The notes beneath the pieces were generated by a model. It made no database searches and was not told the origin of the DNA. It saw nothing but the letters and a program-made list of their open reading frames with translations. From the IMG/VR virus record IMGVR_UViG_3300045988_143416, positions 1 to 52,181 of that record: a DNA stretch of 52,181 nucleotides; one strand, given 5' to 3'. This document shows positions 2,976 to 43,544 of the stretch, piece after piece. A program made the translations under genes and the position numbers. Each line of letters starts with the position of its first letter. The first letter of the stretch is position 1. The DNA comes from a virus.

Positions 2976-3638
2976 ATGAGCAATTTATTATTTGACCCCA
3001 TTAAAACACAGGCAAGCGTTACGGATAGCGTGCTTGTCGGCTTTAGTGGCGGTAAGGATAGCATAGTAACGCTTGATTTGTGCGTTAAGTATTTTAAAAA
3101 TGTTGTGCCGTTCTTTATGTATCTTGTACCCGATTTACAATTTCAAGAAAGAATGTTAAAGCGGTATGAGGATAAATACGGCATAGAAATTATTAGACTG
3201 CCACACTTTGAGTGTTCAAACTTCTTAAAGTATGGCAGTTTTACAATGTTTGACCCGACTGTTGATATTGTAGGTATTACAGACACTTACGAATATTTAA
3301 GGCAGAGAACGGGCATACATTGGATTGCAGCGGGTGAGCGTTGTGCTGATAGTATCGTGCGTAACGCAATGATTAAGCAGAGCGGTAGCATAGACTACAA
3401 GCGAGGACGCTTTTACCCTATTGCATATTGGAACAAACAAGAAGTATTACAGTACATCAAATACAAGAAACTGTATTTAAGCCCCGAACAAAAGAAAATC
3501 GGCTTTTCTTTTCGCAGTTTGGCAGGGTGTGAGTTGGCAACAATCAAAAATATGTACCCCGCAGATTATGAAAAGATATTAAAGGTTTATCCCTTTGCAG
3601 GGGCGGCAGTTGAAAGATTTGAAAAGTACGGCAAGTAA
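2976..3638 (+). CDS. PAPS-reductase-family PP-loop ATP pyrophosphatase
   Basis: PP-loop GFSGGKDS, then IAAGERCADSIVRNA and YPIAYWNKQEVLQYI, matching the CysH/DndC-type pattern. Confidence 0.85.
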   Translation: MSNLLFDPIKTQASVTDSVLVGFSGGKDSIVTLDLCVKYFKNVVPFFMYLVPDLQFQERMLKRYEDKYGIEIIRLPHFECSNFLKYGSFTMFDPTVDIVGITDTYEYLRQRTGIHWIAAGERCADSIVRNAMIKQSGSIDYKRGRFYPIAYWNKQEVLQYIKYKKLYLSPEQKKIGFSFRSLAGCELATIKNMYPADYEKILKVYPFAGAAVERFEKYGK

Positions 3639-4971: not shown

Positions 4972-5226
4972 TTATGCTGTCAAGCGGTAATCATAGTCAA
5001 CAAATACAAATGTATTACCGCCTTGCAATATCTCGCCTGTACGCTCGTCACGGTCGTAATTTTCGTATTTCATTGCTGTGCTTTCAATCTCTTTTTTGTC
5101 AATGGCTAATTCTTTAATATTTACCCAAATTGCATAGCCGTCATAAGATACACCGACACGGCGGTTATTGTAGCCGTGTTCTTTTAATTCTTTGCGAATT
5201 GCTGCAAGTCTTTCATCATCTGTCAT
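4972..5226 (-). CDS. Hypothetical protein; weak resemblance to polyvalent-protein-associated domains of conjugative elements
   Basis: First gene behind the minus-strand operator promoter. The AAIRKELKEHG...YDRDERTG pattern is recalled from LPD-type domains, with low certainty. Confidence 0.55.
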   Translation of the reverse strand: MTDDERLAAIRKELKEHGYNNRRVGVSYDGYAIWVNIKELAIDKKEIESTAMKYENYDRDERTGEILQGGNTFVFVDYDYRLTA

Positions 5227-5282: not shown

Positions 5283-5311
5283 ATTGTATCACAAAAGTGA
5301 TATAAAATCAA
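5283..5311 (-). promoter_or_regulatory. Promoter (minus strand) with palindromic operator 5287-5302
   Basis: On the minus strand: TTGATT, 17 nt, TACAAT. TATCACAAAAGTGATA overlaps the spacer and -10. Confidence 0.55.
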
Positions 5312-5369
5312 TAGTAAAATAGTGAAAAAATGCACAAATATCAATGTAAAACTTTGTGAATTATGCCTA

Positions 5370-5398
5370 TTGATATTATAACACATTTGTGATATTAT
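5370..5398 (+). promoter_or_regulatory. Promoter with operator 5379-5394
   Basis: TTGATA, 17 nt, TATTAT. TAACACATTTGTGATA overlaps the spacer and -10. Confidence 0.6.
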
Positions 5399-5455
5399 AT
5401 AAATGTAATGAGGGGCAGGCAATAATAAATAGCCCCCGTACAGAAAGGTAAGACA

Positions 5456-5623
5456 ATGAAAGAGTACATTTGTAGATTAGTTAATAATGAGGGCTTTATT
5501 ATAGACGGTGCTTTTGTTACTGCAAAGAATAAAAAAGAAGCATTAGAAAAGTATTTGATTATTCACCCATACGCTAAAACCGATAAATGCGTATTTGATA
5601 AATATACAGTTGAAAGAGCGTAA
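5456..5623 (+). CDS. Hypothetical small protein, 55 aa
   Basis: ATG behind the conserved leader hairpin and CAGAAAGGTAA SD. Below the ORF-track cutoff. Confidence 0.5.
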   Translation: MKEYICRLVNNEGFIIDGAFVTAKNKKEALEKYLIIHPYAKTDKCVFDKYTVERA

Positions 5624-5637
5624 GAGGGGGTAACGGT

Positions 5638-5772
5638 ATGTTAGAGTATAAAAGTGCTATTGTAGACGAGTGCGGCGACATTGTTTATTGGTGTGAAAAT
5701 TTGACTGAAAATGAGATTAGAGAAATACTCGCAAATCATATTGAATGGCGTAGAACTTGCATAGAAATATAA
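5638..5772 (+). CDS. Hypothetical small protein, 44 aa
   Basis: ATG behind AGAGGGGG. Stop TAA at 5770-5772. Confidence 0.4.
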   Translation: MLEYKSAIVDECGDIVYWCENLTENEIREILANHIEWRRTCIEI

Positions 5773-5851: not shown

Positions 5852-7087
5852 GTGGTAAAAATAAATATTGATGTAAAGATAAACCCCGTATATTTTCCGT
5901 ATCTTGATAAACCGCAATTTGTACAGATATTTTACGGTGGCTCGTCAAGTGGTAAATCTTATTTCAACGGACAAAAGATTGTACTTGATAATATGCACGG
6001 CGTTAATTGGCTTTGTTGTCGTAATGTTGCTAAAACAATGCGTAACAGTATATTCAATGAGGTAACAAAGGCAATAATTAAAATGAATTTGAGCGAGTAT
6101 TACAGGATAAACCGCTCGGATATGGTTATTACTAACACCCTGAATAATAAGCAAATACTATTTGCGGGGCTTGATGATGTTGAAAAAGTCAAGTCAATTA
6201 CACCGATTGAGGGCGTACTCGAAAGGATATTTGTAGAAGAAGCAACAGAGATAAAGTATGCCGCCTATAAGCAATTAACAAAGCGTTTGCGTGGTTATAG
6301 CGAACACCGCAAAGGTATTATTTTAGCATTTAACCCTATCTTAAAATCACATTGGATATATCAAACATTTTTCGGCGGTTGGCAAGACGACAAGAATTGT
6401 TACGAAGATGATAATTTACTAATCTTAAAGACCACCTACAAGGATAATTTGTTTTTGACACCCGAAGATAGAGAGCAATTAGAGAATGAGAGCGACCCAT
6501 ATTTCTATAATGTGTATTCACTCGGTAATTGGGGCATACTCGGCAACATTATCTTTAAGAATTGGCACACAGAGGATTTAAGCGAACAATCAAAGACTTT
6601 CGACCATTTATATTATGGTTGCGACTTTGGTTATTCCTCCGACCCTAACGCTTTGATAAAGGTACATATTGATAAGACCCGCAAAAAGATTTATATACTT
6701 GATGAATTTTATCAAGCGGGAATGAATGATGATGAACTTGTGAGAGTATCACGCAAATTTGTTAAAGACGATTATATCACCTGCGATAGTGCAGAGCCGA
6801 AAACGATTGACTATTTAGCAAATCACGGCGTAAATGCTACACCTGCTGTAAAGGGTGCGGATAGTATCAATCGTGGCATAAGGTGGTTGCAAACATACGA
6901 AATAATTGTTGATGTGCGTTGTCAAAATTTCAAAAACGAGATAGAGCAATACCATTGGCAAGAGGATAAGTACGGTAATGCAATGGCAAAGCCTGTTGAC
7001 GCAAACAATCACCTTTTAGACGCTTTGAGATATGCACTTGAACAAGAAATGTTAGAAGCAGAGGTAGAGGCAGGAATAAGAATATAA
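5852..7087 (+). CDS. terL: Terminase large subunit (PBSX/XtmB-type)
   Basis: Walker A YGGSSSGKS, Walker B-like IFVEEA, and a C-terminal nuclease region. GTG start behind AAGGG. Confidence 0.9.
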   Translation: MVKINIDVKINPVYFPYLDKPQFVQIFYGGSSSGKSYFNGQKIVLDNMHGVNWLCCRNVAKTMRNSIFNEVTKAIIKMNLSEYYRINRSDMVITNTLNNKQILFAGLDDVEKVKSITPIEGVLERIFVEEATEIKYAAYKQLTKRLRGYSEHRKGIILAFNPILKSHWIYQTFFGGWQDDKNCYEDDNLLILKTTYKDNLFLTPEDREQLENESDPYFYNVYSLGNWGILGNIIFKNWHTEDLSEQSKTFDHLYYGCDFGYSSDPNALIKVHIDKTRKKIYILDEFYQAGMNDDELVRVSRKFVKDDYITCDSAEPKTIDYLANHGVNATPAVKGADSINRGIRWLQTYEIIVDVRCQNFKNEIEQYHWQEDKYGNAMAKPVDANNHLLDALRYALEQEMLEAEVEAGIRI

Positions 7088-7242
7088 TGTGTAATCACAA
7101 TTTTGTAACTGTTAATGATGTTAGAGTATGTCAAAAGTGCGGTATTACCGTTACTTTTGATAATAAAGTGCTATTTGATAGAAAAATAGCAAACTATAAA
7201 CCTAAAAAGAAGAAGCGAGGCAAGAAATGGCAAGGAAAATAA
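7087..7242 (+). CDS. Possible small zinc-ribbon protein, 51 aa
   Basis: ATG overlaps the terL stop. It has a CxxxxxxxxxCxxC pattern and a Lys-rich tail, overlaps the portal start, and has a weak RBS. Confidence 0.3.
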   Translation: MCNHNFVTVNDVRVCQKCGITVTFDNKVLFDRKIANYKPKKKKRGKKWQGK

Positions 7243-8714
7243 CTGAATTATATCCCGATTTTACGGCTTTTATTGATGAAATTGACGAAAACGGTATAAC
7301 ACCCGAATTACTAAGCAAGATTATCAATAAACACAGAGGCAATTCACTTTATAACAAGAAACTGTATGACCGCTATATGACTATGGACGGTGGCGTACCT
7401 ATCTTTAAGCGTGAGCCGAGATTTGAAGAAGAAGAAAAGCCGATAAACAACAAAATCAATAATGACTTTTTTAGTGAAATTGTAGATTTTAAGACAGGCT
7501 ATTTTGCAGGCAGACCGATTACATACAGTTATGCGCAGAATGACGAGGCAGAAGAAGCAACGGGCGGTAAAGAAGCAGTTGAAAAGGCTACAAAAGCACA
7601 AAGCGACTTTGTAACCCGTAACAATATGTACGGCGTGGATATGGAAACAACGAAGTTTGCAAGCATATATGGTTATGCGGGCAGGCTTTTTTACATTGAC
7701 ACAGAGGGCAACGAAAGAGTAATGCCCGTACAAGGCTTTGAAACTATCATTTTGTCAAAGACTGATATATCCGAGCCGAAATATGCAATACGCTATTATC
7801 CTGTATGGGATATAAACAATGTAAAGTCGTGGGTAGTTGAATTTTACGACAATACAAACATTTATACATACAAAGGCTATCTATCCAAATTAGAGCAGGA
7901 CGGCGAGCCTAAACCGCATATGTTCGACTTATGCCCGCTGCAAGGCATAGCGAACAATAAAGAGATGTTGGGCGACGCTGAAAAAGTGCTATCTTTGATT
8001 GATGATTACGACAAAGTGTTGTCGGATAATTCAAACGAGGTAGAGGCATTCGTACACGCTTATTTGATTTTTGAAAATCTAAAAATAAGTGAAGATACTA
8101 TAAAAAAAGGTCAAAAGAACGGCTCTTTTGTATTTCCACCAACAGGAACACAGCAGGGCAAGGCTTATTTCTTAACAAAGAATATAAACGACAGTTTTAC
8201 AGAACACCATTTACAGCGTGTGCAGGATAATATCTATCGTTTCAGTAAAACGCCTAATTTGAATGATGAAACTTTCGGAGCGGCGAGCGGTGTATCTCTC
8301 AAATTCAAATTACACGGGCTTGAAACAAAATGCGGTATGTTTGAGGCAAAAATGATGGACGCAGGACAATATATGTGGCGTGTTCTTGCGAGTGCTTGGG
8401 CGAAAAAGCAAATTGCATTTGACCCGTTACAGGCTGATATGGACTTTGTGCGTAACTTCCCGCTTGACCTTGCAAACGAGGCAACAACAGCACAGGCATT
8501 AAAGGCTATCGGCTTGCCTGATGAAATAGTTTACAGTCAGTTGTCATTTATTGATGATGTTGACTATGTTCTATCCCTTAAAGAAAAGGAAATGAACGAT
8601 ATAACACCGTTGCAAAAAGATACGCCCGAAGATGAAGAAACAGACGAAGAAGCAGACGAAGAAAACAACGACAAAGAAGAAAAAGAAAAAAAGGCAAAAA
8701 AGGATAATGAATAA
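7227..8714 (+). CDS. Portal protein (SPP1 gp6-like)
   Basis: 495 aa. The N-terminal pattern and acidic C-terminal tail are typical of SPP1-type portals. It follows terL. Confidence 0.9.
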   Translation: MARKITELYPDFTAFIDEIDENGITPELLSKIINKHRGNSLYNKKLYDRYMTMDGGVPIFKREPRFEEEEKPINNKINNDFFSEIVDFKTGYFAGRPITYSYAQNDEAEEATGGKEAVEKATKAQSDFVTRNNMYGVDMETTKFASIYGYAGRLFYIDTEGNERVMPVQGFETIILSKTDISEPKYAIRYYPVWDINNVKSWVVEFYDNTNIYTYKGYLSKLEQDGEPKPHMFDLCPLQGIANNKEMLGDAEKVLSLIDDYDKVLSDNSNEVEAFVHAYLIFENLKISEDTIKKGQKNGSFVFPPTGTQQGKAYFLTKNINDSFTEHHLQRVQDNIYRFSKTPNLNDETFGAASGVSLKFKLHGLETKCGMFEAKMMDAGQYMWRVLASAWAKKQIAFDPLQADMDFVRNFPLDLANEATTAQALKAIGLPDEIVYSQLSFIDDVDYVLSLKEKEMNDITPLQKDTPEDEETDEEADEENNDKEEKEKKAKKDNE

Positions 8715-10330
8715 TGCCGATTTCAAAAAAGACGCTTGACCGCTATTTTGCTGAATTAAGGCGAATTGAAGCCCACAGAACAGCGGGGGCAGAAAAGAAA
8801 ATAAGACGCTTATACAAAGCCCTTATGAAAGAGTTAATAGGCTTTCTTGGTAATGAGTATGCACAATATGCGGATAGTGACGGTAATTTGAGTATTGCAT
8901 TATTGCAATCACAAAGCCGTTACGCCCGTTTCCTTGAAGAAGTCGAAAAGCAGGTTGACGGTTTAAGCCCGAAATATGCGAAACTTATAAAAGATACCGT
9001 AGAGGAAACATACAAAAATTGCTATGAGGGTATGGTTGAAGCGGTACAAAAATCAAATAACAATGCTGAACTTGCTGCAAATTTGCAAGGTTTGTCAGTA
9101 AGACCCGAAGTAATGAAAAATGCCGTTGAAAATCCCGTCAGTGGCTTAACTTTGCCTGATAGGTTAGAAAAGCACAGGGCAGAAGTTATATACAGCATAA
9201 AGCAAGAGTTAAATATGGCTTTAGTTGTCGGGGATAGGTACGAAACCGTTGCAAAGAAATTGTCAAACAGACTTGATATTGATTATCGAAAGGCAATTAC
9301 AATAGCACGAACAGAAACGCACCAAGTACAAGAGGGCGGATTTATGGATTGTGCCGTTGATTTGCAACAATGCTTTGACGGTAGCGAGTACATTTATGCG
9401 GCAACTTGGCGAACTATGAAAGATGAAAAAGTACGCCCACAAGTAGCAGCATATAAGAGAAAAGCAGGCGTAAAAGCACGAAAAAAGTATACAGCAGGTG
9501 CAAGGGCATATTTTGGCAAGCCTAACCATATCACAATGGAGGGGCGAACAGTTAAAGCAGGCGAATACTTTAAATTTGACGACGGCGTTAAAACAAAAGC
9601 CCCGTCACATAGTGGCGTAGCAGGACACGATTGTAATTGTCGTTGTATTCTTGAATACAATATAATGACATTTGCCGAATTTGAAAAGGCAACAGGCAAG
9701 CCCGTAACTACTGCAAGCGTTCACGGAAGCATTAAGCAACAAATGAACGAAAACGGCATTGCAAGCGTTAATTTACAGCGAACAACCGACGCAAAGGGTT
9801 TTGATACCTCTATCAAAGAAGCGATTAAATCACACCCCGTAGGGGCTTGTGTAGACGCCCACCCTTTGGACGAATTACAAAGTTATAAACTGTATTTGTC
9901 CGAAAATAAAATGGCAGGTGTAGCGGTTAAGCCTGACGGCGATATAACAGCAGTATTCAAAAATGCCGAATATAAACAGCGTGGGGCAGTTAATGATTTA
10001 ATCATTACAGCAAGAGCAAACGGCGGTACAAAAATGGACTGTTTCGGTATTAGCCTTGTTAATAGGTATGAGCAATGCGGCTATGTGCCTGTTGCAAGAA
10101 TACCATTTAATGACAAGTACATTGACGACCCGTATTTACTCAAAACACGCCCTGATGTTTATGTTATGATGAAAAATACAGACGACTTGCAAACAGTTAT
10201 TGAAAAGAACGCTAAAAAGGCTTACAAAGTATCTATGCAAGAGGAATTAGACAAACTGAAAACGATTGAAGATTACGACAAAGCATTGAGTTACCGTGAT
10301 AAGTTGTTAAAAGTGCAAGAGAGTAAATAA
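8714..10330 (+). CDS. Head morphogenesis protein (MuF/SPP1 gp7 family) with a C-terminal GNAT-like extension
   Basis: The MuF core runs through ARTETHQ...GHDCNCRCILEY. About 200 extra residues follow, with the GNAT-like pattern YKQRGAVNDLIITARANGGTKMDCF...RYEQCGYVPVA. Confidence 0.85.
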   Translation: MPISKKTLDRYFAELRRIEAHRTAGAEKKIRRLYKALMKELIGFLGNEYAQYADSDGNLSIALLQSQSRYARFLEEVEKQVDGLSPKYAKLIKDTVEETYKNCYEGMVEAVQKSNNNAELAANLQGLSVRPEVMKNAVENPVSGLTLPDRLEKHRAEVIYSIKQELNMALVVGDRYETVAKKLSNRLDIDYRKAITIARTETHQVQEGGFMDCAVDLQQCFDGSEYIYAATWRTMKDEKVRPQVAAYKRKAGVKARKKYTAGARAYFGKPNHITMEGRTVKAGEYFKFDDGVKTKAPSHSGVAGHDCNCRCILEYNIMTFAEFEKATGKPVTTASVHGSIKQQMNENGIASVNLQRTTDAKGFDTSIKEAIKSHPVGACVDAHPLDELQSYKLYLSENKMAGVAVKPDGDITAVFKNAEYKQRGAVNDLIITARANGGTKMDCFGISLVNRYEQCGYVPVARIPFNDKYIDDPYLLKTRPDVYVMMKNTDDLQTVIEKNAKKAYKVSMQEELDKLKTIEDYDKALSYRDKLLKVQESK

Positions 10331-10351
10331 AAAAGGGGCATAGCCCCTTTT
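10331..10351. terminator. Bidirectional intrinsic terminator
   Basis: AAAAGGGGC-ATA-GCCCCTTTT between convergent genes. Confidence 0.7.
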
Positions 10352-10661
10352 AAATATTATACTTTTGATATTCACTTATCATAATATCGGCAAGTCGCTG
10401 ATTTATCATTGATTTTTGATACTCTCTTACATTGCCGTTAGGGTAGTAAACTTTAATCATCAATGTACCTTTCTTGCTTATTCTTTCTTCTGTTTTTACA
10501 TTGTGATTAGTGATAAATTCTTCAACTGTTTCATATGTTTTAGTTGTATCAACATTAAAGATTTTATCAAGTTTCTTTCTGTCTTTTGCGGGTATGTTTT
10601 TAAAAAGAACACCGCCGTAGTATGAATAAGTTGTTTTATCAATTTTTACTGTATTACTCAT
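10350..10661 (-). CDS. Hypothetical protein, 103 aa (reverse-strand gene inside the head module)
   Basis: Start moved to MSNTVKID..., behind the conserved GCAGAAAGGTTAA SD. Confidence 0.55.
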   Translation of the reverse strand: MSNTVKIDKTTYSYYGGVLFKNIPAKDRKKLDKIFNVDTTKTYETVEEFITNHNVKTEERISKKGTLMIKVYYPNGNVREYQKSMINQRLADIMISEYQKYNI

Positions 10662-10715: not shown

Positions 10716-10744
10716 AGTATAACACAAATGCGATACAATGTCAA
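10716..10744 (-). promoter_or_regulatory. Promoter (minus strand) with operator-like dyad 10720-10735
   Basis: On the minus strand: TTGACA, 17 nt, TATACT, with a TG extension. TAACACAAATGCGATA is in the same register as the other operator sites. Confidence 0.55.
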
Positions 10745-10861: not shown

Positions 10862-11071
10862 ATGTTGACGCAAAAAGAAATGGGCGATATGTCCGCAAAA
10901 CAGATTATTGAACGCCTTGAACAAGATTACAAAGACGATAAAGACGCTTTAGAAGAAATAAAGCGGGCTAAACAAAATATAAAGTACATTGAAAGCCAAA
11001 AGGACTATAAAGGGCAATCACCGTGGCAACACGCTGTATCGCTTGCGGGTATGCTTGATTTATGGGGCTAA
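10862..11071 (+). CDS. Hypothetical protein
   Basis: 69-aa ORF with ATG behind GAGGTGA. Confidence 0.5.
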   Translation: MLTQKEMGDMSAKQIIERLEQDYKDDKDALEEIKRAKQNIKYIESQKDYKGQSPWQHAVSLAGMLDLWG

Positions 11072-35826: not shown

Positions 35827-35860
35827 AGGGGCTATCTTAATTGATAGCCCCTCTTTTTTT
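35827..35860. terminator. Bidirectional intrinsic terminator
   Basis: AGGGGCTATC-loop-GATAGCCCCT followed by TTTTTTT. Confidence 0.8.
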
Positions 35861-36116
35861 ATTGTTCTTCTAATTCGGATAGTTGCCATTTCAATTCGTT
35901 TTTCATTTGTTCGAGTTTTTCAATTTCGGCTTTTTTCTTTTTGTAAATATTTTCAATTTCATAAATCGAAAGTTTTGTTTTAAGGGCTTCGCCTTTGTAA
36001 TATGCGTCAATCATTTGCCCGCCTTTTCTTGCTGCCTTGTCTAATTCTTCAATGTCTCTGTTGATACCTTTTACAGCATATTCAAGAATTTGTTTTTGAT
36101 TTAACATTTTAATCAC
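35859..36116 (-). CDS. Hypothetical coiled-coil protein
   Basis: 85-aa ORF, divergent from the 36318 operon. Confidence 0.5.
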   Translation of the reverse strand: MIKMLNQKQILEYAVKGINRDIEELDKAARKGGQMIDAYYKGEALKTKLSIYEIENIYKKKKAEIEKLEQMKNELKWQLSELEEQ

Positions 36117-36162: not shown

Positions 36163-36191
36163 ATTATACCACTTTTGTGATAATATTAAAC
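36163..36191 (-). promoter_or_regulatory. Extended -10 promoter (minus strand) with operator 36167-36182
   Basis: On the minus strand TGGTATAAT, with a poor -35. TACCACTTTTGTGATA is in the standard register. Confidence 0.4.
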
Positions 36192-36235
36192 AAAAATACA
36201 CAATAAAATCAATAAATATTTGTGAGTTTTGCTAA

Positions 36236-36264
36236 TTGATTTTATACCACATTTGTGATATTAT
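36236..36264 (+). promoter_or_regulatory. Promoter with operator 36245-36260
   Basis: TTGATT, 17 nt, TATTAT. TACCACATTTGTGATA overlaps the spacer and -10. Confidence 0.6.
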
Positions 36265-36317
36265 ATAAGTGTAATAAAGAGAGGGCAACAGCCCTTTAAG
36301 AAAGAAAGGTAATTATT

Positions 36318-36629
36318 ATGAAACTTATTACAAAAGAAATTGAGAGAAAACTCAATAAAACACCGATTTACAGCAAAGACGGTCAAGGCGTTGACGCTGA
36401 AATCATTGTAAAATTTTTCAACCCGTGCGGTGCTGCTACTTGGCTTATTACAGAGGCAGAGAAGCAAGACAACGGCGACTATCTATTATATGGCTATATC
36501 ACATTAGGCTATGGCTATGAATGGGGCTATGTGATGTTGTCAGAGTTGCAGAAAATTAGAAACGGTTACGGCTTAGGTATTGAGCGTGACAGATACGCAC
36601 ACGGCACAGTTAAAGAGAATGTAGCATAA
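36318..36629 (+). CDS. DUF2958-like protein
   Basis: The pattern VKFFNPCGAATWLITEAE...GYGYEWGYVMLSEL...GIERD matches my recollection of DUF2958. Confidence 0.6.
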   Translation: MKLITKEIERKLNKTPIYSKDGQGVDAEIIVKFFNPCGAATWLITEAEKQDNGDYLLYGYITLGYGYEWGYVMLSELQKIRNGYGLGIERDRYAHGTVKENVA

Positions 36630-36695
36630 CAGCAAGCGGGCTATAAACGCCCGCAATGCGTCAAAAAGAAACATTTATAAAAAGGGTGATGAAAT

Positions 36696-36935
36696 ATGTT
36701 AGTAAGAGATAAAGACAGTCAAGAGGGCTATATTCACATTTGCGACGATTATAAAAGATATATTAAGTCAGCATTAAAAGAGCGTATGCCGATTTATGTA
36801 CACGATATGAAAGTTTACACGCTTATCGAAACAAAAAAAGGTCACGAACTCAAAGATATAAAATATTGTCCTTATTGTGGGGCTGAAATAGAAAAAGAAG
36901 AAAGAAAGCAGGTATATAACAATGAGATACTATGA
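36696..36935 (+). CDS. Hypothetical protein with a C-terminal CPYCG zinc-ribbon-like motif
   Basis: 79-aa ORF behind AAAGGGTGA. Confidence 0.5.
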   Translation: MLVRDKDSQEGYIHICDDYKRYIKSALKERMPIYVHDMKVYTLIETKKGHELKDIKYCPYCGAEIEKEERKQVYNNEIL

Positions 36936-37842
36936 AATCAACGAAACAGCAGCAAGACAAGCCCGTCAAATGTGGTCTTTTAGCGATTATGAACACGGCA
37001 GTAAGACAGCAGAATACAGGGCAGCGGTTGACAGATGTTATGCAGAAGTTGACCGCCTACCCGAAGAATTGAAAGAGAAAGGGGCGACAATGGCAGACAG
37101 ATACGCCCGCCGCCTTGCAGAGTGGTATAACAAGCAATTTAGAATTGAAATGATGTGTCCGTCCGTTATGATTAGTGGCGGCAGTAATTTCCCCGTAAGA
37201 AAGAAAGAGAAACAGAACGCCGCACAAGATAGGCATTATCAATTATACAAAGAAATTCAGCAGATACCCGAAAAGATAGCAGGGCTATTAAGAGGCACAA
37301 ATGTCATTAAATCAAGCGACGCAGACGCTTTAGAGAAATTGCAACAGAAAGTTGAAAAACTTGAAGCGTGGCAAACCGAAATGAAAGAGGCAAACGCATA
37401 TTACAGAAAGCACAAATCATTGAAAGGGTACAAAGATTTTAGCGACGAAAGAGCAGAGAAACTTGACAAGGCTATTTCAGAAACTTGGTATCAAAAGCCC
37501 TTTGCACCTTTTGAATTAACAAACAATAATGCAAAGATTAAAAGTGCAAAGGCAAGAATTGCAGAGATTGAAAGATTAAAGAAAGAAGCAGCAGAAGCGG
37601 CAGAACAGCCCGAAAGCGAAAATACAACAACTTTATTTAAGATTGTTGAAAATGCCGAAATAATGCGTTTGCAAGTGATTTTTGACGGCAAGCCAAACGC
37701 CGAAGCAAGACAGATTTTGAAAAGCAACGGCTTTAGGTGGGCACCGTCAAATAGTGCTTGGCAAAGACAATTAACAGACAATGCAAGATATTCAGGTAAG
37801 AGAGTAAAAGAGCAGTTACAAGAGTTAGGCGAGATTTACTAA
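36922..37842 (+). CDS. DUF3560-like protein
   Basis: C-terminal FDGKPNAEARQILKSNGFRWAPSNSAWQRQ pattern, recalled from DUF3560. Confidence 0.55.
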   Translation: MRYYEINETAARQARQMWSFSDYEHGSKTAEYRAAVDRCYAEVDRLPEELKEKGATMADRYARRLAEWYNKQFRIEMMCPSVMISGGSNFPVRKKEKQNAAQDRHYQLYKEIQQIPEKIAGLLRGTNVIKSSDADALEKLQQKVEKLEAWQTEMKEANAYYRKHKSLKGYKDFSDERAEKLDKAISETWYQKPFAPFELTNNNAKIKSAKARIAEIERLKKEAAEAAEQPESENTTTLFKIVENAEIMRLQVIFDGKPNAEARQILKSNGFRWAPSNSAWQRQLTDNARYSGKRVKEQLQELGEIY

Positions 37843-37884
37843 TTTTGCACAAAAAAGCACTTGAAAGTTTGTATATTTTGTCAC

Positions 37885-37913
37885 TTGAAAATGTAACACA
37901 AAAGTGATACAAT
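37885..37913 (+). promoter_or_regulatory. Promoter with operator 37894-37909
   Basis: TTGAAA, 17 nt, TACAAT. TAACACAAAAGTGATA overlaps the spacer and -10. Confidence 0.6.
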
Positions 37914-37970
37914 ATAGATGTAATGAGGGGTCAGAAACTATAAGCCCTCTGTACAGAAAGGTGAATTACA

Positions 37971-38141
37971 ATGAAGATTTACACAGCAGACAAAGAAGCA
38001 GGCAATAAGATAGAAGCGTTCAACACGATTGAAGAAGCGAAAAAGGCAATTATTGCTTACGAAGAAGAAGATAAACACGACGGCACATATACGCCCGACT
38101 TTTATGATGTTGTAAACGAAAATTGCGAAAGTCTTATCTAA
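37971..38141 (+). CDS. Hypothetical acidic small protein, 56 aa
   Basis: ATG behind the conserved leader hairpin and CAGAAAGGTGA. Below the ORF-track cutoff. Confidence 0.5.
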   Translation: MKIYTADKEAGNKIEAFNTIEEAKKAIIAYEEEDKHDGTYTPDFYDVVNENCESLI

Positions 38142-38243
38142 CGCAGAGCGACTACCACCCTTGCAAGGGTGGTAGGTAATGCGGTCAGGCAGACGGTCGC
38201 AAACCCGACAGCCGCAAACAATAAAGAAAGGGGGGGCGTAAGA

Positions 38244-38435
38244 ATGACAGAATACTATGCTTGCGGGCTTGTTTTCTTTGCCTTTATAGCAATAACGCTA
38301 TTACTTTATTTTGCTTATTATTCCATTAACAAGGCTATTAGAAAGCGTAAAATCAAGCAGTTAAAGAGAGAATACAGGCGCAGAAAGCAAACACAAACAT
38401 ACGCCGAATTTGTGGCAGTATCTGAAGCATTTTAA
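38244..38435 (+). CDS. Small membrane protein, 63 aa
   Basis: Start moved to ATG 38244, behind AAGGGGGGG. One TM helix followed by a basic tail. Confidence 0.5.
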   Translation: MTEYYACGLVFFAFIAITLLLYFAYYSINKAIRKRKIKQLKREYRRRKQTQTYAEFVAVSEAF

Positions 38436-38455
38436 ATTAAAGAAAGAGGTATTTA

Positions 38456-38872
38456 ATGAAAGCAATATCTATTAAGCCGCATTTTGCACATCAAATATTG
38501 TGTGGCACAAAAACAACAGAATACAGAACTTGGCAGACAAAATACAGAGGCAACTTGCTTATATGCAGCAGTGCAGCACCGAAAGAGAAAGGCACAATAA
38601 GCGGTCACGCTTTGATTGTTTGCAGGCTGAACGACATTGAGCCGTTAAGTAAAAGAGAGTTAAGAGAAATCGGCGTTGATGAAAACCCCGACAAGCCTAT
38701 TTACGGTTGGCGGCTGACAGACTTTAAAACTATAAAGCCGTTTCCTGTAAAGGGCAAACTAAATCTTTACGAGGTTGACGACAATTTAATTGAGTACATT
38801 GACGACGAGCAAATGACAAGCAAAGAACTTGACGAGGTATTCAACAAGTATTTCAAGCCGTTATTTGATTGA
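38456..38872 (+). CDS. ASCH domain protein
   Basis: N-terminal MKAISIKPHFAHQILCGTKTTEYRTW...RGNLLI pattern is typical of ASCH domains. Confidence 0.65.
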   Translation: MKAISIKPHFAHQILCGTKTTEYRTWQTKYRGNLLICSSAAPKEKGTISGHALIVCRLNDIEPLSKRELREIGVDENPDKPIYGWRLTDFKTIKPFPVKGKLNLYEVDDNLIEYIDDEQMTSKELDEVFNKYFKPLFD

Positions 38873-38966
38873 GTGCAAACGGGGCTTATAATACAGCGTG
38901 TGCAGTATGAAAAAGCCCCGCATTGTGGCATAATTAAGTTGAATTTTAGGCAAACGGAGGTAGCGT

Positions 38967-39191
38967 ATGACATTACGAGAAAGGCGAGTAAAAAAAGGTT
39001 ATTCACAAAATGACCTTGCCGTTGCGTCAGGTGTAAGCAAAAGGGCGATACAGTGTTATGAGCAAGAAATAAGGGATATAAACGGGGCACATATAAAATC
39101 ATTGTGCGACCTTGCGATAGCACTTGATTGTAAAATATCAGATTTGCTAACTGACGAAGAACTGAAAAAGCGGTACAAAATGGTAAAATAA
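38967..39191 (+). CDS. XRE-family HTH protein (last gene of the operator-controlled operon)
   Basis: HTH_3 pattern KKGYSQNDLAVASGVSKRAIQCYEQ. Confidence 0.75.
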   Translation: MTLRERRVKKGYSQNDLAVASGVSKRAIQCYEQEIRDINGAHIKSLCDLAIALDCKISDLLTDEELKKRYKMVK

Positions 39192-39200
39192 ACTGTTAAA

Positions 39201-39230
39201 AAGGCAGGGAATACACCCCGCCTTTTCTTT
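39201..39230. terminator. Terminator hairpin between convergent genes
   Basis: AAGGC(A)GGG-loop-CCCGCCTT followed by TTTCTTTT. Confidence 0.55.
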
Positions 39231-39234
39231 TGCC

Positions 39235-39516
39235 TTATTTACTTATTATAAGTTTTTTATCGAACTTGTTAAGGTAAATTCGGAAGAATATATTATCCTG
39301 AAAATCACCTATACAAGTTTGGTTGTATATTACAACGCTGTCTATATCATCATTGAATACGGCTTTATCAACTGCCTGATAGAAATTGCCACCCTCAAAA
39401 TCAAGGACTTTATCGGCAATGGATATTCCGCAACGATTACAATACTGACTGCAACTATTCCATTGGTCAAAGATTGATATATCTATATTATCGCAAACAT
39501 ATATAACACAATTCAT
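39235..39516 (-). CDS. Degenerate resolvase-catalytic-domain-like protein lacking the nucleophile Ser
   Basis: Start at MNCVIYV, behind AAGGAGGGTG. It aligns by eye with the integrase N-terminal domain (YxRxS replaced by YVCDN; ..IDSVVIY.. matches ..IDVIVVY..). Confidence 0.45.
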   Translation of the reverse strand: MNCVIYVCDNIDISIFDQWNSCSQYCNRCGISIADKVLDFEGGNFYQAVDKAVFNDDIDSVVIYNQTCIGDFQDNIFFRIYLNKFDKKLIISK

Positions 39517-39518
39517 TG

Positions 39519-41072
39519 TTACACCCTCCTTTTCGTTTTTGTGTATAAACTCCACTCGGGCTGTCCGTGCGGTAGCTTATGCCCAATTTGTACAGCAGTG
39601 GGGGAGGCATAGAGAAATACCTCTATTACCTCATTATCAATCACGATTTTTTTTACAAAATTATTAAAAATGGTTTGCAAAACTTCATCATCTGTTGTGT
39701 CGGATATTGACAACATTTTATTGAGATAGTCAACAATCATAGCGTGTGAAATTGTCATTTTTGTTTGTTGCTCAATAGCCATAATTTGACTATCAATTTC
39801 CTTTGCTCTATCCTCACACTTTGTCATATGTTCAGCGACATAAGCATTGTTGACTAATTTTAATGACCTCAACTCCAACAACTCGGATATTTGAGACTCT
39901 ACAGTAGACAATTCCTTTTTCAGTTGTTTAAGTTTGCTTTTTTGGCTATCGGGATTTTCGCCTAATTTTACTATAATCTCATTTGCAATTTGATAAATCG
40001 ACTTTTCGTTTAATATGTGTTTCTTAATTTCATTCAATACGGTTTCTTCTAAATAATCTTTTCTTACCCTCTTGCAGGAACACTCGGCGTATGTTTTACT
40101 TGTGGAACATACATAGTATTTATAATCGTATTTCTTGCCACGCTGTACGCTTGCACTTCTTATCCCGAAAAAGTGCTTGCCACATTTTCCGCATATTATT
40201 TTTCCTGTTAAAGAGTATAAATCTTTTCGTTTGCGAGGTTTTACATAGGTTTGGCTCTTATGCCGTTGTTGTACTCTATCCCATAAGACTTTATCAATGA
40301 TAGGTGGAATTACATCATATACAACAATCGGCTCGTGTCCTTGTGCATTGTATCTTAATATGCCGATATAAAAATCATTCCGCAACATTCGGGCAATGGA
40401 GGTAATACCGAACGGCTTACCTTGCCTTGTCGAAGCCCCTATACTTTTAGTGTAATCTTGCAAATATTTCAAGGAATAGTTATCCGCATACAATTCAAAC
40501 AGTTTGTTGACAACCTCTTTTTCATATTCGTCAGGCGTGTACTTTTTCTTTTTCTTTTTACCGTTATCAAAGACGGTTTCTAATTTATAGCCATAAGGAA
40601 CAGTACCGCCTGTAAAATAACCTTGCTTTGCCATTTCTCGCATACTTGATTTTACAAAGTCCGATATAGTTTCACTTTGGAATTGGTCTATATCTGCAAG
40701 AACATTTATCATTAACCGTCCTGCACTTGTTTCGTCGTCCATAAGTTGAGTAATTGAGACTAACCGTACATTGTGCTTTTTGAACAATTTGCGGTACTTA
40801 TGACTTTCGTAAGCGTTACGGAATATGCGGCTGAATTTATAAACGACAATTACATCTATCAACTCATTTTTGACATCATTTATCAATTCGTGGAACGCTT
40901 CACGCCCTGCCACCTTTGTACCTGTTATTGCTTGGTCTATATATGTTTTAGTCAATGGCAGTCCTTGTTTGTTCAGGTATTCTTGACATTCAGACATTTG
41001 ATATTCGATTGAATATCCGTCGTCTTGTTTCGTGTCGGAATATCTTGCATATAACCCTGTTCGTTCGTTCAT
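39519..41072 (-). CDS. int: Large serine recombinase (integrase)
   Basis: N-terminal LYARYSDTKQ resolvase domain, recombinase domain, Cys-rich zinc ribbon (CGKCG...C..C) and a coiled coil. 517 aa. Confidence 0.9.
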   Translation of the reverse strand: MNERTGLYARYSDTKQDDGYSIEYQMSECQEYLNKQGLPLTKTYIDQAITGTKVAGREAFHELINDVKNELIDVIVVYKFSRIFRNAYESHKYRKLFKKHNVRLVSITQLMDDETSAGRLMINVLADIDQFQSETISDFVKSSMREMAKQGYFTGGTVPYGYKLETVFDNGKKKKKKYTPDEYEKEVVNKLFELYADNYSLKYLQDYTKSIGASTRQGKPFGITSIARMLRNDFYIGILRYNAQGHEPIVVYDVIPPIIDKVLWDRVQQRHKSQTYVKPRKRKDLYSLTGKIICGKCGKHFFGIRSASVQRGKKYDYKYYVCSTSKTYAECSCKRVRKDYLEETVLNEIKKHILNEKSIYQIANEIIVKLGENPDSQKSKLKQLKKELSTVESQISELLELRSLKLVNNAYVAEHMTKCEDRAKEIDSQIMAIEQQTKMTISHAMIVDYLNKMLSISDTTDDEVLQTIFNNFVKKIVIDNEVIEVFLYASPTAVQIGHKLPHGQPEWSLYTKTKRRV

Positions 41073-41082
41073 TATTTGCCCC

Positions 41083-41457
41083 CTATTTGCGGTATTCCTC
41101 TATTTTTATAATGTCTGCAATGTAATCACGCACTTTGTCTAACCCTGTTTTATTCAGTTTTGCTAACGGCAAGAATAAATCCTCTGCTTCCTCACCGAAT
41201 ACACTTCTCAAAGCCGCAGTATGCGACATACCATATTCGGAGTGTCTTGTGTTGCCGTCAAAGATAAAATCCCACGGAACTTTGTTAAACAGATAGCATA
41301 ATTTTTTGATATGTGCGGACTTTAAGTTTTGTACTTGGTTGCTTTCGTATTTCTGCACAGCCGCCCTCCCAACGCCTAACTCCTTTCCTAATTCCTCTTG
41401 CGTCATTCCCTTTTCAAGTCTGTACTTTTTGATTTTTTCACCTACTGTTAAGGACAA
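41083..41457 (-). CDS. XRE-family HTH regulator (repressor candidate)
   Basis: TTG start behind AAAGGAGGTGA. HTH_3 pattern KGMTQEELGKELGVGRAAVQKYES. Confidence 0.75.
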   Translation of the reverse strand: MSLTVGEKIKKYRLEKGMTQEELGKELGVGRAAVQKYESNQVQNLKSAHIKKLCYLFNKVPWDFIFDGNTRHSEYGMSHTAALRSVFGEEAEDLFLPLAKLNKTGLDKVRDYIADIIKIEEYRK

Positions 41458-41582
41458 TACTAATCACCTCCTTTGTAGAATAGCATAGCATTATTGTATC
41501 TTAAAAGTAAAAAAATTATGCTCAAAGTATCTAAAAAGTAGTTGTGCCGATAAATTCCCTATGTTAATATAATTTTGTCAAT

Positions 41583-41616: not shown

Positions 41617-41949
41617 TTATTTCATATTCAAATACATTTTCATTATCTCTTTATAAAGATGTTCCCTTTCTTCTTTAGGGATAGTTTCATTAAGAAATAC
41701 GCTCTTTGCACGGCTTAATAACTCAAAACTTTCGTCTGTTGTAGTAACGCCGAAGTAATCAAGACTAACGCCGTAAAATTCAGCAAAACGGCGTAAATCG
41801 GATAAATGCGGACTTCTTCTGCCTACTTCATAATTTGAAATTGTGGCACGGCTTAACCCCATTCTTTCGGATAATTCTTGTTGCGTTAGTTTTCTGCCTT
41901 TCCTCAATGTTTTCAGTTTCGTGCCGATAGTACACACTATTTTTTCCAC
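41617..41949 (-). CDS. XRE-family HTH regulator (CI-like repressor candidate)
   Basis: HTH_3 pattern RKLTQQELSERMGLSRATISNYEVG. Divergent from the early rightward genes. Confidence 0.75.
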   Translation of the reverse strand: MEKIVCTIGTKLKTLRKGRKLTQQELSERMGLSRATISNYEVGRRSPHLSDLRRFAEFYGVSLDYFGVTTTDESFELLSRAKSVFLNETIPKEEREHLYKEIMKMYLNMK

Positions 41950-42059: not shown

Positions 42060-42088
42060 TTGATTAAAAATAATTATAGTAGTATAAT
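42060..42088 (+). promoter_or_regulatory. Rightward early promoter
   Basis: TTGATT, 17 nt, TATAAT. Confidence 0.55.
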
Positions 42089-42127
42089 GATAACGAAAGT
42101 TAGCAATATTATTGTAATGATAACGAG

Positions 42128-42443: not shown

Positions 42444-42472
42444 TTGTAAAATAATGTAAAAAATAGTACAAT
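42444..42472 (+). promoter_or_regulatory. Promoter of the leader-hairpin family, without the operator dyad
   Basis: TTGTAA, 17 nt, TACAAT, followed by TGTAATGAGGGGG...CCCCCATACAGAGAGGT. Confidence 0.5.
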
Positions 42473-42531
42473 AGTAACTGTAATGAGGGGGTACAAAGAA
42501 CTACAAGCCCCCATACAGAGAGGTAATAACA

Positions 42532-42876
42532 ATGAAAACACTTGATACTAACAAATACCGCTATGAATTTGTCGGCGGTGAATTTAACGGTAAAATGTGG
42601 CAATTTGCCGCACTTGAAATTAGAAATCTTATTAAAGGTTATAGCAAAGATTTAAGTGCACAAAGAGCAAAAGGCATTTTATGCAAGCGTGCAGAACTTG
42701 ACAATCAGCCTTTAGTTGACGGTTATATGCCACCTATGTATGACGGCAAAAGATACATTGTAAATGGCGAATTAAAAAGCGAGTGGCAATGTACCGAAGA
42801 ACAAAAAGCAAATAACGAGTTTGTGCACATTATAAGATATGAAAGCGAAGAAATATACGATATGATGAGCAATTAA
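42532..42876 (+). CDS. Hypothetical protein
   Basis: 114-aa ORF behind the conserved leader. Confidence 0.6.
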   Translation: MKTLDTNKYRYEFVGGEFNGKMWQFAALEIRNLIKGYSKDLSAQRAKGILCKRAELDNQPLVDGYMPPMYDGKRYIVNGELKSEWQCTEEQKANNEFVHIIRYESEEIYDMMSN

Positions 42877-43337: not shown

Positions 43338-43544
43338 GTGAGAACTAAATTAAAACAATTTAGGGTAGGCACAAAACTAACGCAAGCAGAATTTGCCGAA
43401 AAAATAGGCGTAAGCCGTGCAACATATAGTTTTGTTGAAACAGGACAGCGAGGTGGAACACACGAATTTTGGCAGGCAATTCAAGATGTGTTTAATGTGC
43501 CTGACGAGGATATGTATGCACTTCAAAAACTTGATAAGGAGTAG
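43338..43544 (+). CDS. XRE-family HTH protein (Cro-like candidate)
   Basis: GTG start behind AAGGTGGTGA. HTH_3 pattern TKLTQAEFAEKIGVSRATYSFVETG. Confidence 0.7.
   Translation: MRTKLKQFRVGTKLTQAEFAEKIGVSRATYSFVETGQRGGTHEFWQAIQDVFNVPDEDMYALQKLDKE

Follow-up and report, generated by a model that had tools for sequence, protein, structure and literature searches.

Organization of the locus

The DNA analysed here is a stretch of 52,181 nucleotides, referred to below as the window, which makes up IMG/VR virus record IMGVR_UViG_3300045988_143416. It is the genome of a temperate tailed phage, a gut prophage, and the subject of this report is an operon located between its lysis genes and its integrase gene. 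The operon begins with a sigma-70-type promoter bearing a 16-bp dyad and a 5' leader, and encodes an acidic protein of 56 amino acids (aa), a predicted twister self-cleaving ribozyme, a 63-aa membrane protein, an ASCH-domain protein and a 74-aa helix-turn-helix (HTH) protein of the XRE family, designated HTH74, followed by an intrinsic terminator (Table 1). A first-pass annotation of the same DNA had described the promoter with a dyad reaching the -10 element, the leader, the four genes and the terminator. The dyad indeed reaches into the -10 by two bases, and the leader was recovered by alignment, the genes by homologues or Pfam matches and the terminator as a hairpin with U-tract. The ribozyme had been overlooked; it lies in the 102 nt that separate the 56-aa gene from the 63-aa gene.

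The locus was compared with 19 metagenome-contig loci encoding the same HTH protein or its 85% or 78% variants, to which were added IMG/VR relatives (55-58% identity) and prophages in metagenome-assembled genomes (MAGs) for a total of more than 25 phages and prophages (loci are given L numbers). The promoter, dyad, leader, ASCH gene and HTH gene are conserved across the relatives. The gene for the 63-aa membrane protein is kept in close relatives and is missing from L022, L023 and L107. The earlier description of the HTH gene as the terminal gene holds for the window and not for several relatives, in which more genes follow it.

The 56-aa protein has a confidently predicted beta-beta-alpha-beta fold (predicted local distance difference test score, pLDDT, 92.4). 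A Foldseek search of the PDB with this structure returned nothing significant (best E 1.0), and the protein matched only uncharacterised viral proteins. The N-terminal 40 residues of the ASCH protein align with the ASCH structures of human ASC-1 in the PDB. The conserved spacer between the ASCH and HTH genes could hold an internal promoter or an RNA element, judging from its promoter-like hexamers and long hairpin, for which no covariation was seen among the relatives.

Table 1. Features of the operon, of the other dyad promoters and of the phage genome, numbered by position in the window.
Feature	Position	Strand	Evidence and remarks
Upstream element GCACAAA..N..TTTGTAT..TTTTGTC	37846-37884	+	Alignment; common to promoters at 5379, 36245, 42060 and 42444
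Sigma-70-type promoter TTGAAA-17-TACAAT with TG (-16) element	37885-37913	+	10/12 consensus positions; kept in all related loci
16-bp dyad TAACACAAAAGTGATA (TAACAC-AAAA-GTGATA), putative operator	37894-37909		Fills promoter spacer and overlaps first 2 bases of -10
5' leader GTAATGAGGGG..CCC..ACAGAAAGGT	37920-37970	+	Begins at about the predicted transcription start (GUAAUGAGGGG); hairpin 37925-37949, then ribosome-binding site ACAGAAAGGUG
Cargo gene, 56-aa acidic protein	37971-38141	+	Net charge ~-8; 32 homologue clusters
Type-P5 twister self-cleaving ribozyme (predicted)	38142-38208	+	Rfam RF02684, 45.3 bits vs gathering 37.6; conserved tail CAGCCGCAAAC to ~38219
63-aa protein, one N-terminal transmembrane helix, strongly basic tail	38244-38435	+	After last ribozyme in close family
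ASCH (PUA-like) protein, 138 aa	38456-38872	+	PF04266, E 8.9e-8, 33.2 bits vs gathering 21.2; phrog_3193
ASCH-HTH spacer, conserved	38873-38966	+	Long hairpin (CGGGGCUU, 24-nt loop, AAGCCCCG) at 38880-38920; promoter-like hexamers with TGgCATAAT adjoining
HTH74, 74-aa XRE-family HTH, proposed dyad-binding autorepressor	38967-39191	+	HTH_3, E 1.1e-8, 35.5 bits vs gathering 23
Intrinsic terminator	39199-39235	+	Hairpin 39199-39226, -13.5 kcal/mol, then U-tract UUUUCUUUU; further genes instead in some relatives
Divergent dyad promoter pair	5287-5394	both	Upstream of large terminase gene; minus to 84-aa gene 4972-5226, plus to 55-aa and 44-aa open reading frames 5456-5772
Dyad promoter TTGACA-17-TATACT	10716-10744	-	Drives 103-aa gene 10350-10661, inserted between Mu F-like and scaffold genes
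Divergent dyad promoter pair	36167-36260	both	Minus to 85-aa gene 35859-36116 (after lysis genes); plus to DUF2958, DUF6980-like and 306-aa DUF3560-like genes
Large terminase	5852-7087		
Portal	7227-8714		
Mu F-like head-morphogenesis gene	8714-10330		Directly 3' of portal gene; scaffold gene also encoded
Serine integrase	39519-41072		Tail and lysis genes also encoded
XRE repressor-like genes, two	41083 (124 aa) and 41617 (41617-41949, CI-like, 110 aa)	-	Rightward early region beyond

Predicted self-cleaving ribozymes and exchangeable cargo genes

The twister match covers the full length of the RF02684 model (positions 1-58 of 58) with E values of ~1e-7 to 3e-6, and RF02684 was the sole Rfam family found in the window. 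The score was 64.9 bits with a twister model built in this analysis. The core nucleotides GCAGAG, UAAUGCG, CGGUC and CAA..CCCG are present, with U38177-A38178 located after the 3' strand of stem P1. Cleavage is predicted between U38177 and A38178 because the scissile site of twister ribozymes is a U-A dinucleotide adjoining P1 (PMC5408937). A collection of 15 distinct twister variants (31 copies) revealed four pair types in pseudoknot T1 (GU/AC, GC/GC, AG/CU and GG/CC), four types in pseudoknot T2 and at least six different P1 stems. Since T1, T2 and P1 covary with every pair canonical in all 15 variants, the results are strong evidence for selection acting on the predicted twister fold.

The first one to three genes of the related operons are unrelated small open reading frames (ORFs) of 49, 56, 65, 67, 69, 72, 73, 75, 79, 87, 88, 91 and 132 aa, hereafter cargo, and none of the ten alternative cargo ORFs tested against Pfam belonged to a family. 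Every variable cargo ORF lies directly 5' of a match to a self-cleaving ribozyme, and the number of ribozymes tracks the number of ORFs. The window operon has one cargo gene and one twister, two ORFs accompany two ribozymes in, for example, L003 and L017, and three accompany three in L107. A regular-expression search of the window and 21 loci returned 29 twisters, and the twisters of the relatives scored 40-64 bits with Rfam. The second twister of L023 has an insertion in P3 and scored 30.6 bits, under the gathering score (E 5e-4), and a type II hammerhead at 5967-6028 (40.0 bits vs gathering 37) replaces the twister after the second cargo gene of L022. Several unrelated cargo ORFs end with ..AE-stop, reading into the ribozyme sequence CGCAGAGUGA, and many cargo stop codons are located inside the ribozyme. 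The ribozyme search found none in the operon of L024/L025, and no ribozyme was found adjoining the homologues of the 56-aa gene in other phages.

The custom twister model, in which three rows were hand-edited to regularise P1 or P3, was also run on 80 ASCH-encoding genome loci. It detected 13 twisters in seven loci, all on the strand of the ASCH gene and upstream of it, with the last twister of each locus ending just 5' of the ASCH start. No twisters were detected in ~70 more distant ASCH loci. A homologue of HTH74 is encoded 3' of the ASCH gene in five of the seven twister-bearing loci, and the only other HTH74 match among the 80 loci was marginal (L159, E 7e-8) and far from the ASCH gene. 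The strongest dyads, and the sole cluster of multiple dyads (L107), likewise occur in the twister/HTH74 loci, with a few single matches of score 12-17 in other loci. The genome loci with twister, ASCH and HTH74 are probably homologous prophage operons, and the association thus reflects one conserved design and not many independent events.

The twisters at 9184-9243 of L002 and 8925-8982 of L003 follow the same 87-aa cargo gene and contain the same P1 stem, joined to different 3' halves, one (type A) found before the 63-aa gene and the other (type B) before the 56-aa gene, with the junction just 3' of UAAUGCGG. The occurrence of the same cargo and P1 with two twister 3' halves (L002 and L003a) suggests that cassettes are exchanged by recombination inside the ribozyme. 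The DNA unit exchanged between phages runs from the 3' half of one twister across an ORF into the 5' half of the following one, up to and including P1, and almost equals the RNA that two cleavages would release. A speculative extension, to which we give little credence, is that the ribozymes organise a cassette system in which the ASCH protein is the partner that reads RNA ends, exerting RNA-level control beside that of the HTH protein. If this were true, primary and processed mRNAs of the system alike would begin with one shared module. The ASCH protein, which is always adjacent and has a PUA-like RNA-binding fold, could in that case be the protein partner that has long been sought for a bacterial self-cleaving ribozyme, setting translation or decay. 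Two further observations lie behind this extension: the leader GUAAUGAGGGG..CAAUAAGCCCC (37920-37950; AAGCCCC) resembles the twister 3' product AAUGCGGC..CACAAGCCCGC (38176-38220; AAUGCGG..AAGCCCG), and L001 has at 8930-9006 a hybrid in which a leader is joined to the post-twister untranslated region (UTR) at the twister-like AAGCCC. No Rfam match was obtained in support of homology between leader and twister.

A dyad shared by six promoters

A search of the whole window for TAWCAC-N4-GTGATA with at most one mismatch yielded 11 strand-matches at six sites, where 0.44 matches were expected, and in a position-weight scan the six dyads scored 21.0-23.4 with the next best site at 7.5. The dyads are located at 5379, 36245 and 37894 on the plus strand and at 5287, 10720 and 36167 on the minus strand. 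All six lie within the spacers of sigma-70-like promoters. The first-pass annotation had likewise counted five dyad-bearing promoters besides that of the operon. The six promoters serve short cassettes placed between the main modules of the genome and spread over 33 kb, each with its own promoter and terminator, and three of them are oriented against the structural genes. The three plus-strand promoters are alike over ~60 bp upstream and in the leader, indicating that they are paralogues, and the three minus-strand promoters have the dyad in common but not the flanks. Copies of the leader, which had zero Rfam matches at E up to 1, were found at 5405 (promoter 5379), at 36270 as a variant (promoter 36245) and at 42480 (dyad-less promoter 42444).

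The last of these promoters, an early promoter (TTGTAA-17-TACAAT, 42444-42534), has the same upstream element and leader (GTAATGAGGGGG..CCCCC..ACAGAGAGGT) as the dyad promoters. Its spacer contains no dyad, and it drives a 114-aa gene that is the first early gene. These results bear on the explanation that the palindrome is mainly a promoter feature, an extended -10/-16 element accompanied by its mirror image, present in six paralogous promoter copies and bound by no dedicated repressor. The right half does overlap the TG and -10 elements, the plus-strand promoters are paralogous and the motif is widespread. However, conservation extends to the left half, which plays no part in the promoter, and its changes are mirrored in the right half. 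The explanation also fits poorly with the minus-strand promoters, which share only the dyad, and with the paralogous promoter at 42444, which keeps flanks and leader without it. We consider it very improbable.

The operon at 36318-37842, which has a dyad promoter, encodes DUF2958, a zinc-ribbon DUF6980-like protein and the 306-aa protein. Along its entire length the latter matched phrog_19458 (E 5.7e-93), which bears the label 'primase', and its match to DUF3560 was only faint. Domains of the DUF2958, DUF6980 and DUF3560 types are frequent in the leading regions of conjugative elements.

Probable assignment of the dyad to HTH74

The distribution of dyads and HTH proteins indicates that HTH74 is probably the protein that binds the dyad. 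It is the sole HTH protein whose own operon bears the dyad, and in every lineage with a homologue of 55-85% identity a dyad is found in the promoter of that operon or of a neighbouring one (the window family, L022, L023, L061 and L065, and genome loci L098, L099, L101 and L107). The homologues of L022 and L023 are 55-58% identical to HTH74 and are accompanied by the dyads TACCTC-AAAA-GTGGTA and TATCGC-ATAT-GTTGTA, respectively. The otherwise unrelated phage L024/L025 has only the HTH protein in common with the window over 10 kb, and contains a single perfect palindrome, TAACACAATTGTGTTA (TAACAC-AATT-GTGTTA), in the spacer of its HTH operon promoter. Palindromy persists through symmetric changes (TAACGC..GTGATA, TACTTC..GTAGTA, TACTGC..GTGGTA and TACCTC..GTGGTA). 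The dyad of the HTH operon changes in this symmetric manner between HTH74 classes, and the recognition helix of the CI-like protein is constant.

The first-pass annotation had offered the two repressor-like proteins encoded at 41083 and 41617 as alternative binders. The 124-aa protein (41083) is excluded by the many phages that keep dyads and do not have its gene. The CI-like protein (41617) is disfavoured by the weight-matrix scan of the window, which found no dyad in the immunity and early-promoter region. More generally, another protein might bind the dyad, either the CI-like 110-aa protein, the Cro-like 68-aa protein (43338-43544) or a host regulator, with HTH74 having a different target. 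The CI-like (LSRATISNYEVGRR) and early 68-aa (VSRATYSFVETGQR) HTH proteins have similar recognition helices, like a CI/Cro pair. All family members encode both, and the recognition helices hardly vary. The 68-aa protein differs between the same classes as the operator, and many phages have the dyad although no HTH74 homologue lies in the flanks. The region where CI and Cro would act is nevertheless free of dyads, the operator of the HTH operon varies by class when the CI helix does not, and L024/L025 has the dyad in its HTH promoter, with the HTH protein alone in common with the window over 10 kb. In addition, strong dyads, twisters and HTH74 largely coincide in few of the 80 genome ASCH loci. 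Binding by a protein other than HTH74 therefore appears improbable. The sites of the host regulators CRP and Rex (GTG..CAC order), LexA (Cheo box) and Fur (Fur boxes) do not fit the dyad.

Four other lines of comparison were abandoned or gave no information. Exclusion of CI on the basis of differing immunity repressors was dropped when the apparent length variants proved to be one CI-like protein whose recognition helix does not differ. Footprinting of the CI operators gave two sequence types and many TTGTG-like repeats in the immunity region with no clear operator. The helix change A27T did not consistently track operator type, L025 having T and yet TAACAC half-sites. The nearest cultured relative of the HTH protein, that of FP_Lagaffe (46% identity), is in a Mu-like context with no dyad and is uninformative.

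The immunity region contains two sets of repeats unlike the dyad. GTATCTNAAAAGTA occurs twice between the repressor genes at 41496-41540, and two copies of (A/T)TGTAATGATAACGA lie at the rightward promoter (42076-42126); these sets may be operators of the immunity repressors. Dyads were also observed outside the window family. In IMG/VR loci L031-L097, TAACAC-N4-GTGTTA is joined to a TATAAT or TACAAT -10 in many unrelated phage contigs, and one large family has TTTACA-N3-TAACACAAATGTGTTATAAT. No XRE gene was found within the flanks. In the related 53-kb phage of L065 (6155-9900), the HTH74 homologue is encoded last in a minus-strand operon with a 488-aa putative DNA methyltransferase, a label that rests on an NPPF motif read in the sequence. 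The dyad promoters of L065 drive a Phd/ParE-like pair and an 80-aa gene, and perfect TACTAC-ATTT-GTAGTA palindromes are present at 10967 and 13325.

Phage genome and host

An exact copy of HTH74 was found in 197 indexed blocks of the contig collection, and its 85%-identity variant in 236. The contigs read with this copy are nearly all of 50-54 kb, derive from human-gut metagenomes and are labelled uncultured Caudoviricetes by NCBI. Megablast of the 36-42 kb region against GenBank phages found zero nucleotide relatives. The host is probably a member of the Acutalibacteraceae, since MAGs of Acutalibacteraceae or Clostridia encode the nearest ASCH homologues as well as a homologue of the 56-aa protein.

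Two other genes of the window were noted. A 106-aa ORF on the minus strand (39235-39555), for which there were zero Pfam matches, lies directly downstream of the integrase gene and overlaps its end, is represented by a 94-aa gene in relatives, and might encode a recombination directionality factor. A gene for a 3'-phosphoadenosine 5'-phosphosulfate (PAPS)-reductase domain (PF01507, E 6e-12) is located at 2976-3638, upstream of the packaging genes; a connection between phage PAPS reductases and escape from Dnd-type defence has been reported (PMC13551039).

Proposed mechanism

The results are best accommodated by an autoregulated accessory operon, the mRNA of which would be cut by ribozymes into cargo and regulator parts, a proposal to which we assign a probability of roughly 0.55. 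The operon would consist of four modules, namely a dyad-bearing promoter, one to three exchangeable cargo-ribozyme units, a back end encoding the membrane protein, ASCH and HTH, and the terminator. The six near-consensus promoters would be fired first by host RNA polymerase once the DNA is available, with no phage factor needed. The twister would then cut the operon transcript at the predicted site, leaving a cargo mRNA that ends in the stable GC-rich P1 hairpin with a 2',3'-cyclic phosphate, and an mRNA for the membrane protein, ASCH and HTH that starts with a 5'-OH. After cleavage, cargo and regulator would have separate stabilities and outputs. As HTH74 accumulates, its dimer would occupy the dyad and repress its own promoter together with the five other dyad promoters.

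Several findings weigh against this proposal. A scan of IMG/VR for the dyad plus a -10 returned 67 loci from ~15-20 unrelated phage families, all in promoter context, and an HTH74 homologue was found within the fetched flanks in only four of these ~15-20 families, with a distant XRE protein in the operon of one more. This wide spread of the dyad-in-promoter design makes it less unique. The right half-site falls on the -16 TRTG element of Firmicute (Gram-positive) promoters and runs into the start of the -10, and part of the motif is thus promoter constraint. In the class with 85% identity to HTH74, the two neighbouring operators do not have the sequence of the HTH operon's own operator (TACTTC/TACTAC). 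Variation from class to class is also seen in the early 68-aa HTH, so that covariation does not single out HTH74. The promoter-like site in the ASCH-HTH spacer could partly free the HTH gene from the dyad promoter, the 56-aa family occurs in other phages without a ribozyme, and the searched libraries returned no known anti-defence protein similar to the cargo.

The operon and the other five cassettes might instead be expressed in the resting prophage and serve lysogenic conversion or superinfection exclusion. HTH74 would then keep expression at a steady low level and not impose early shut-off, the membrane protein and ASCH protein would be effectors, and the cargo genes would be host-directed morons. 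The cassettes have the attributes of morons, each having its own promoter and terminator, a site between conserved modules and a content that differs among close relatives, and the position from lysis genes to integrase is the classic one. The orientation of three cassettes against the structural genes is also consistent with this explanation, as are the weak matches of the ASCH protein to the candidate defence protein PDC-M11B and of HTH74 to restriction-modification (R-M) controllers and capH. The putative methyltransferase accompanying the HTH homologue of L065, and the dyad promoter before its Phd/ParE-like pair, point in the same direction. However, the PADLOC matches are partial and weak, counter-defence loci are the more typical setting for small orphan ORFs of such fast turnover that follow a near-consensus promoter, and nothing separates the expression timings. 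Expression from the resting prophage is accordingly regarded as unlikely, though worth keeping in view.

The proposal of an autoregulated, ribozyme-cut operon would make this locus a defined and testable setting for the role of twister and hammerhead ribozymes in phages, with one promoter, one candidate repressor, exchangeable cargo-ribozyme units and a conserved ASCH protein near the last predicted cut site. Through the six-promoter operator set, one small regulator would govern accessory cassettes scattered over the phage genome. The combination of dyad promoter, ribozyme and ASCH-HTH genes also offers a guilt-by-association handle on orphan proteins of abundant human-gut phages, and the proteins gathered in this way would be candidate counter-defence or host-manipulation factors.

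Comparison with known systems

The first-pass annotation had likened the operon to anti-CRISPR (acr) and anti-CRISPR-associated (aca) operons. The architecture stands, with a strong promoter bearing an inverted repeat, variable orphan genes and an XRE HTH gene, and the anti-CRISPR identity does not. No resemblance of the cargo to known anti-CRISPR or anti-defence proteins was detected with Pfam, PHROGs, PADLOC, PDB sequences or Foldseek, and no solved Aca protein was among the PDB matches of HTH74 at E up to 1. The label is best read as an analogy of architecture and not as membership, and an anti-defence role of the cargo is plausible, though homology does not support it. In acr-aca operons, inverted repeats are located in strong core promoters, a small HTH protein is encoded downstream and the 5' UTRs are structured (PMC9410906, PMC13551039), and several operons may be controlled by one Aca protein (PMC13551039). 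The operon described here has the small HTH encoded downstream of the cargo and the inverted repeat inside the core promoter, by which Aca-type operons are recognised (PMC9410906). It further resembles them in the near-consensus promoter, the fast-changing orphan genes placed first with the conserved HTH gene downstream, the structured 5' UTR and the prediction of one regulator over several operons. It is unlike them in that the predicted regulon extends over 33 kb and not only over neighbouring operons, the ribozymes would part cargo from regulator, and the ASCH and membrane proteins are fixed partners.

Hammerhead ribozymes flank single variable genes near prophage integrases, including the anti-restriction gene ardA (Perreault et al. 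2011, PMC3088659), and processing of polycistronic mRNA has been suggested for such ribozyme-flanked cassettes (PMC3088659; PMC6765202), although the role of these ribozymes in bacteria and phages is still called open (PMC6765202). The present locus is similar in having self-cleaving ribozymes beside single genes of varying identity near an integrase gene. It differs in that the ribozymes are mostly type-P5 twisters, located in an operon with an operator, an ASCH-HTH back end and a terminator. No description was found in the published papers searched of an operator-controlled operon in which each cargo gene is followed by a twister, of fixed ASCH-HTH partners, of a genome-wide operator set or of a link to an autoregulator.

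The best PDB sequence neighbours of HTH74 are SinR, C.AhdI, C.BclI and 434 Cro (E 0.01-0.5), and the weak PADLOC matches are to an R-M 'control protein' and capH. R-M controller (C) proteins and SinR/Xre repressors are small XRE HTH dimers that control their own genes through palindromic boxes in the promoter. HTH74 is likewise a small XRE HTH protein with a palindromic box in its own promoter, and autoregulation is proposed. The operator sequence is unlike that of C proteins, and the window operon has no R-M system.

Self-cleavage of glmS reportedly leaves a 5'-OH on the downstream mRNA and alters its decay in Firmicutes, as is said to have been found by Collins et al. in 2007. Cleavage by the twister would likewise leave a 5'-OH on the downstream mRNA. 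The glmS ribozyme is metabolite-dependent and located in a 5' UTR, whereas the twister of this operon is intercistronic and has no known ligand, its predicted cut falling between the cargo gene and the genes for the membrane protein, ASCH and HTH.

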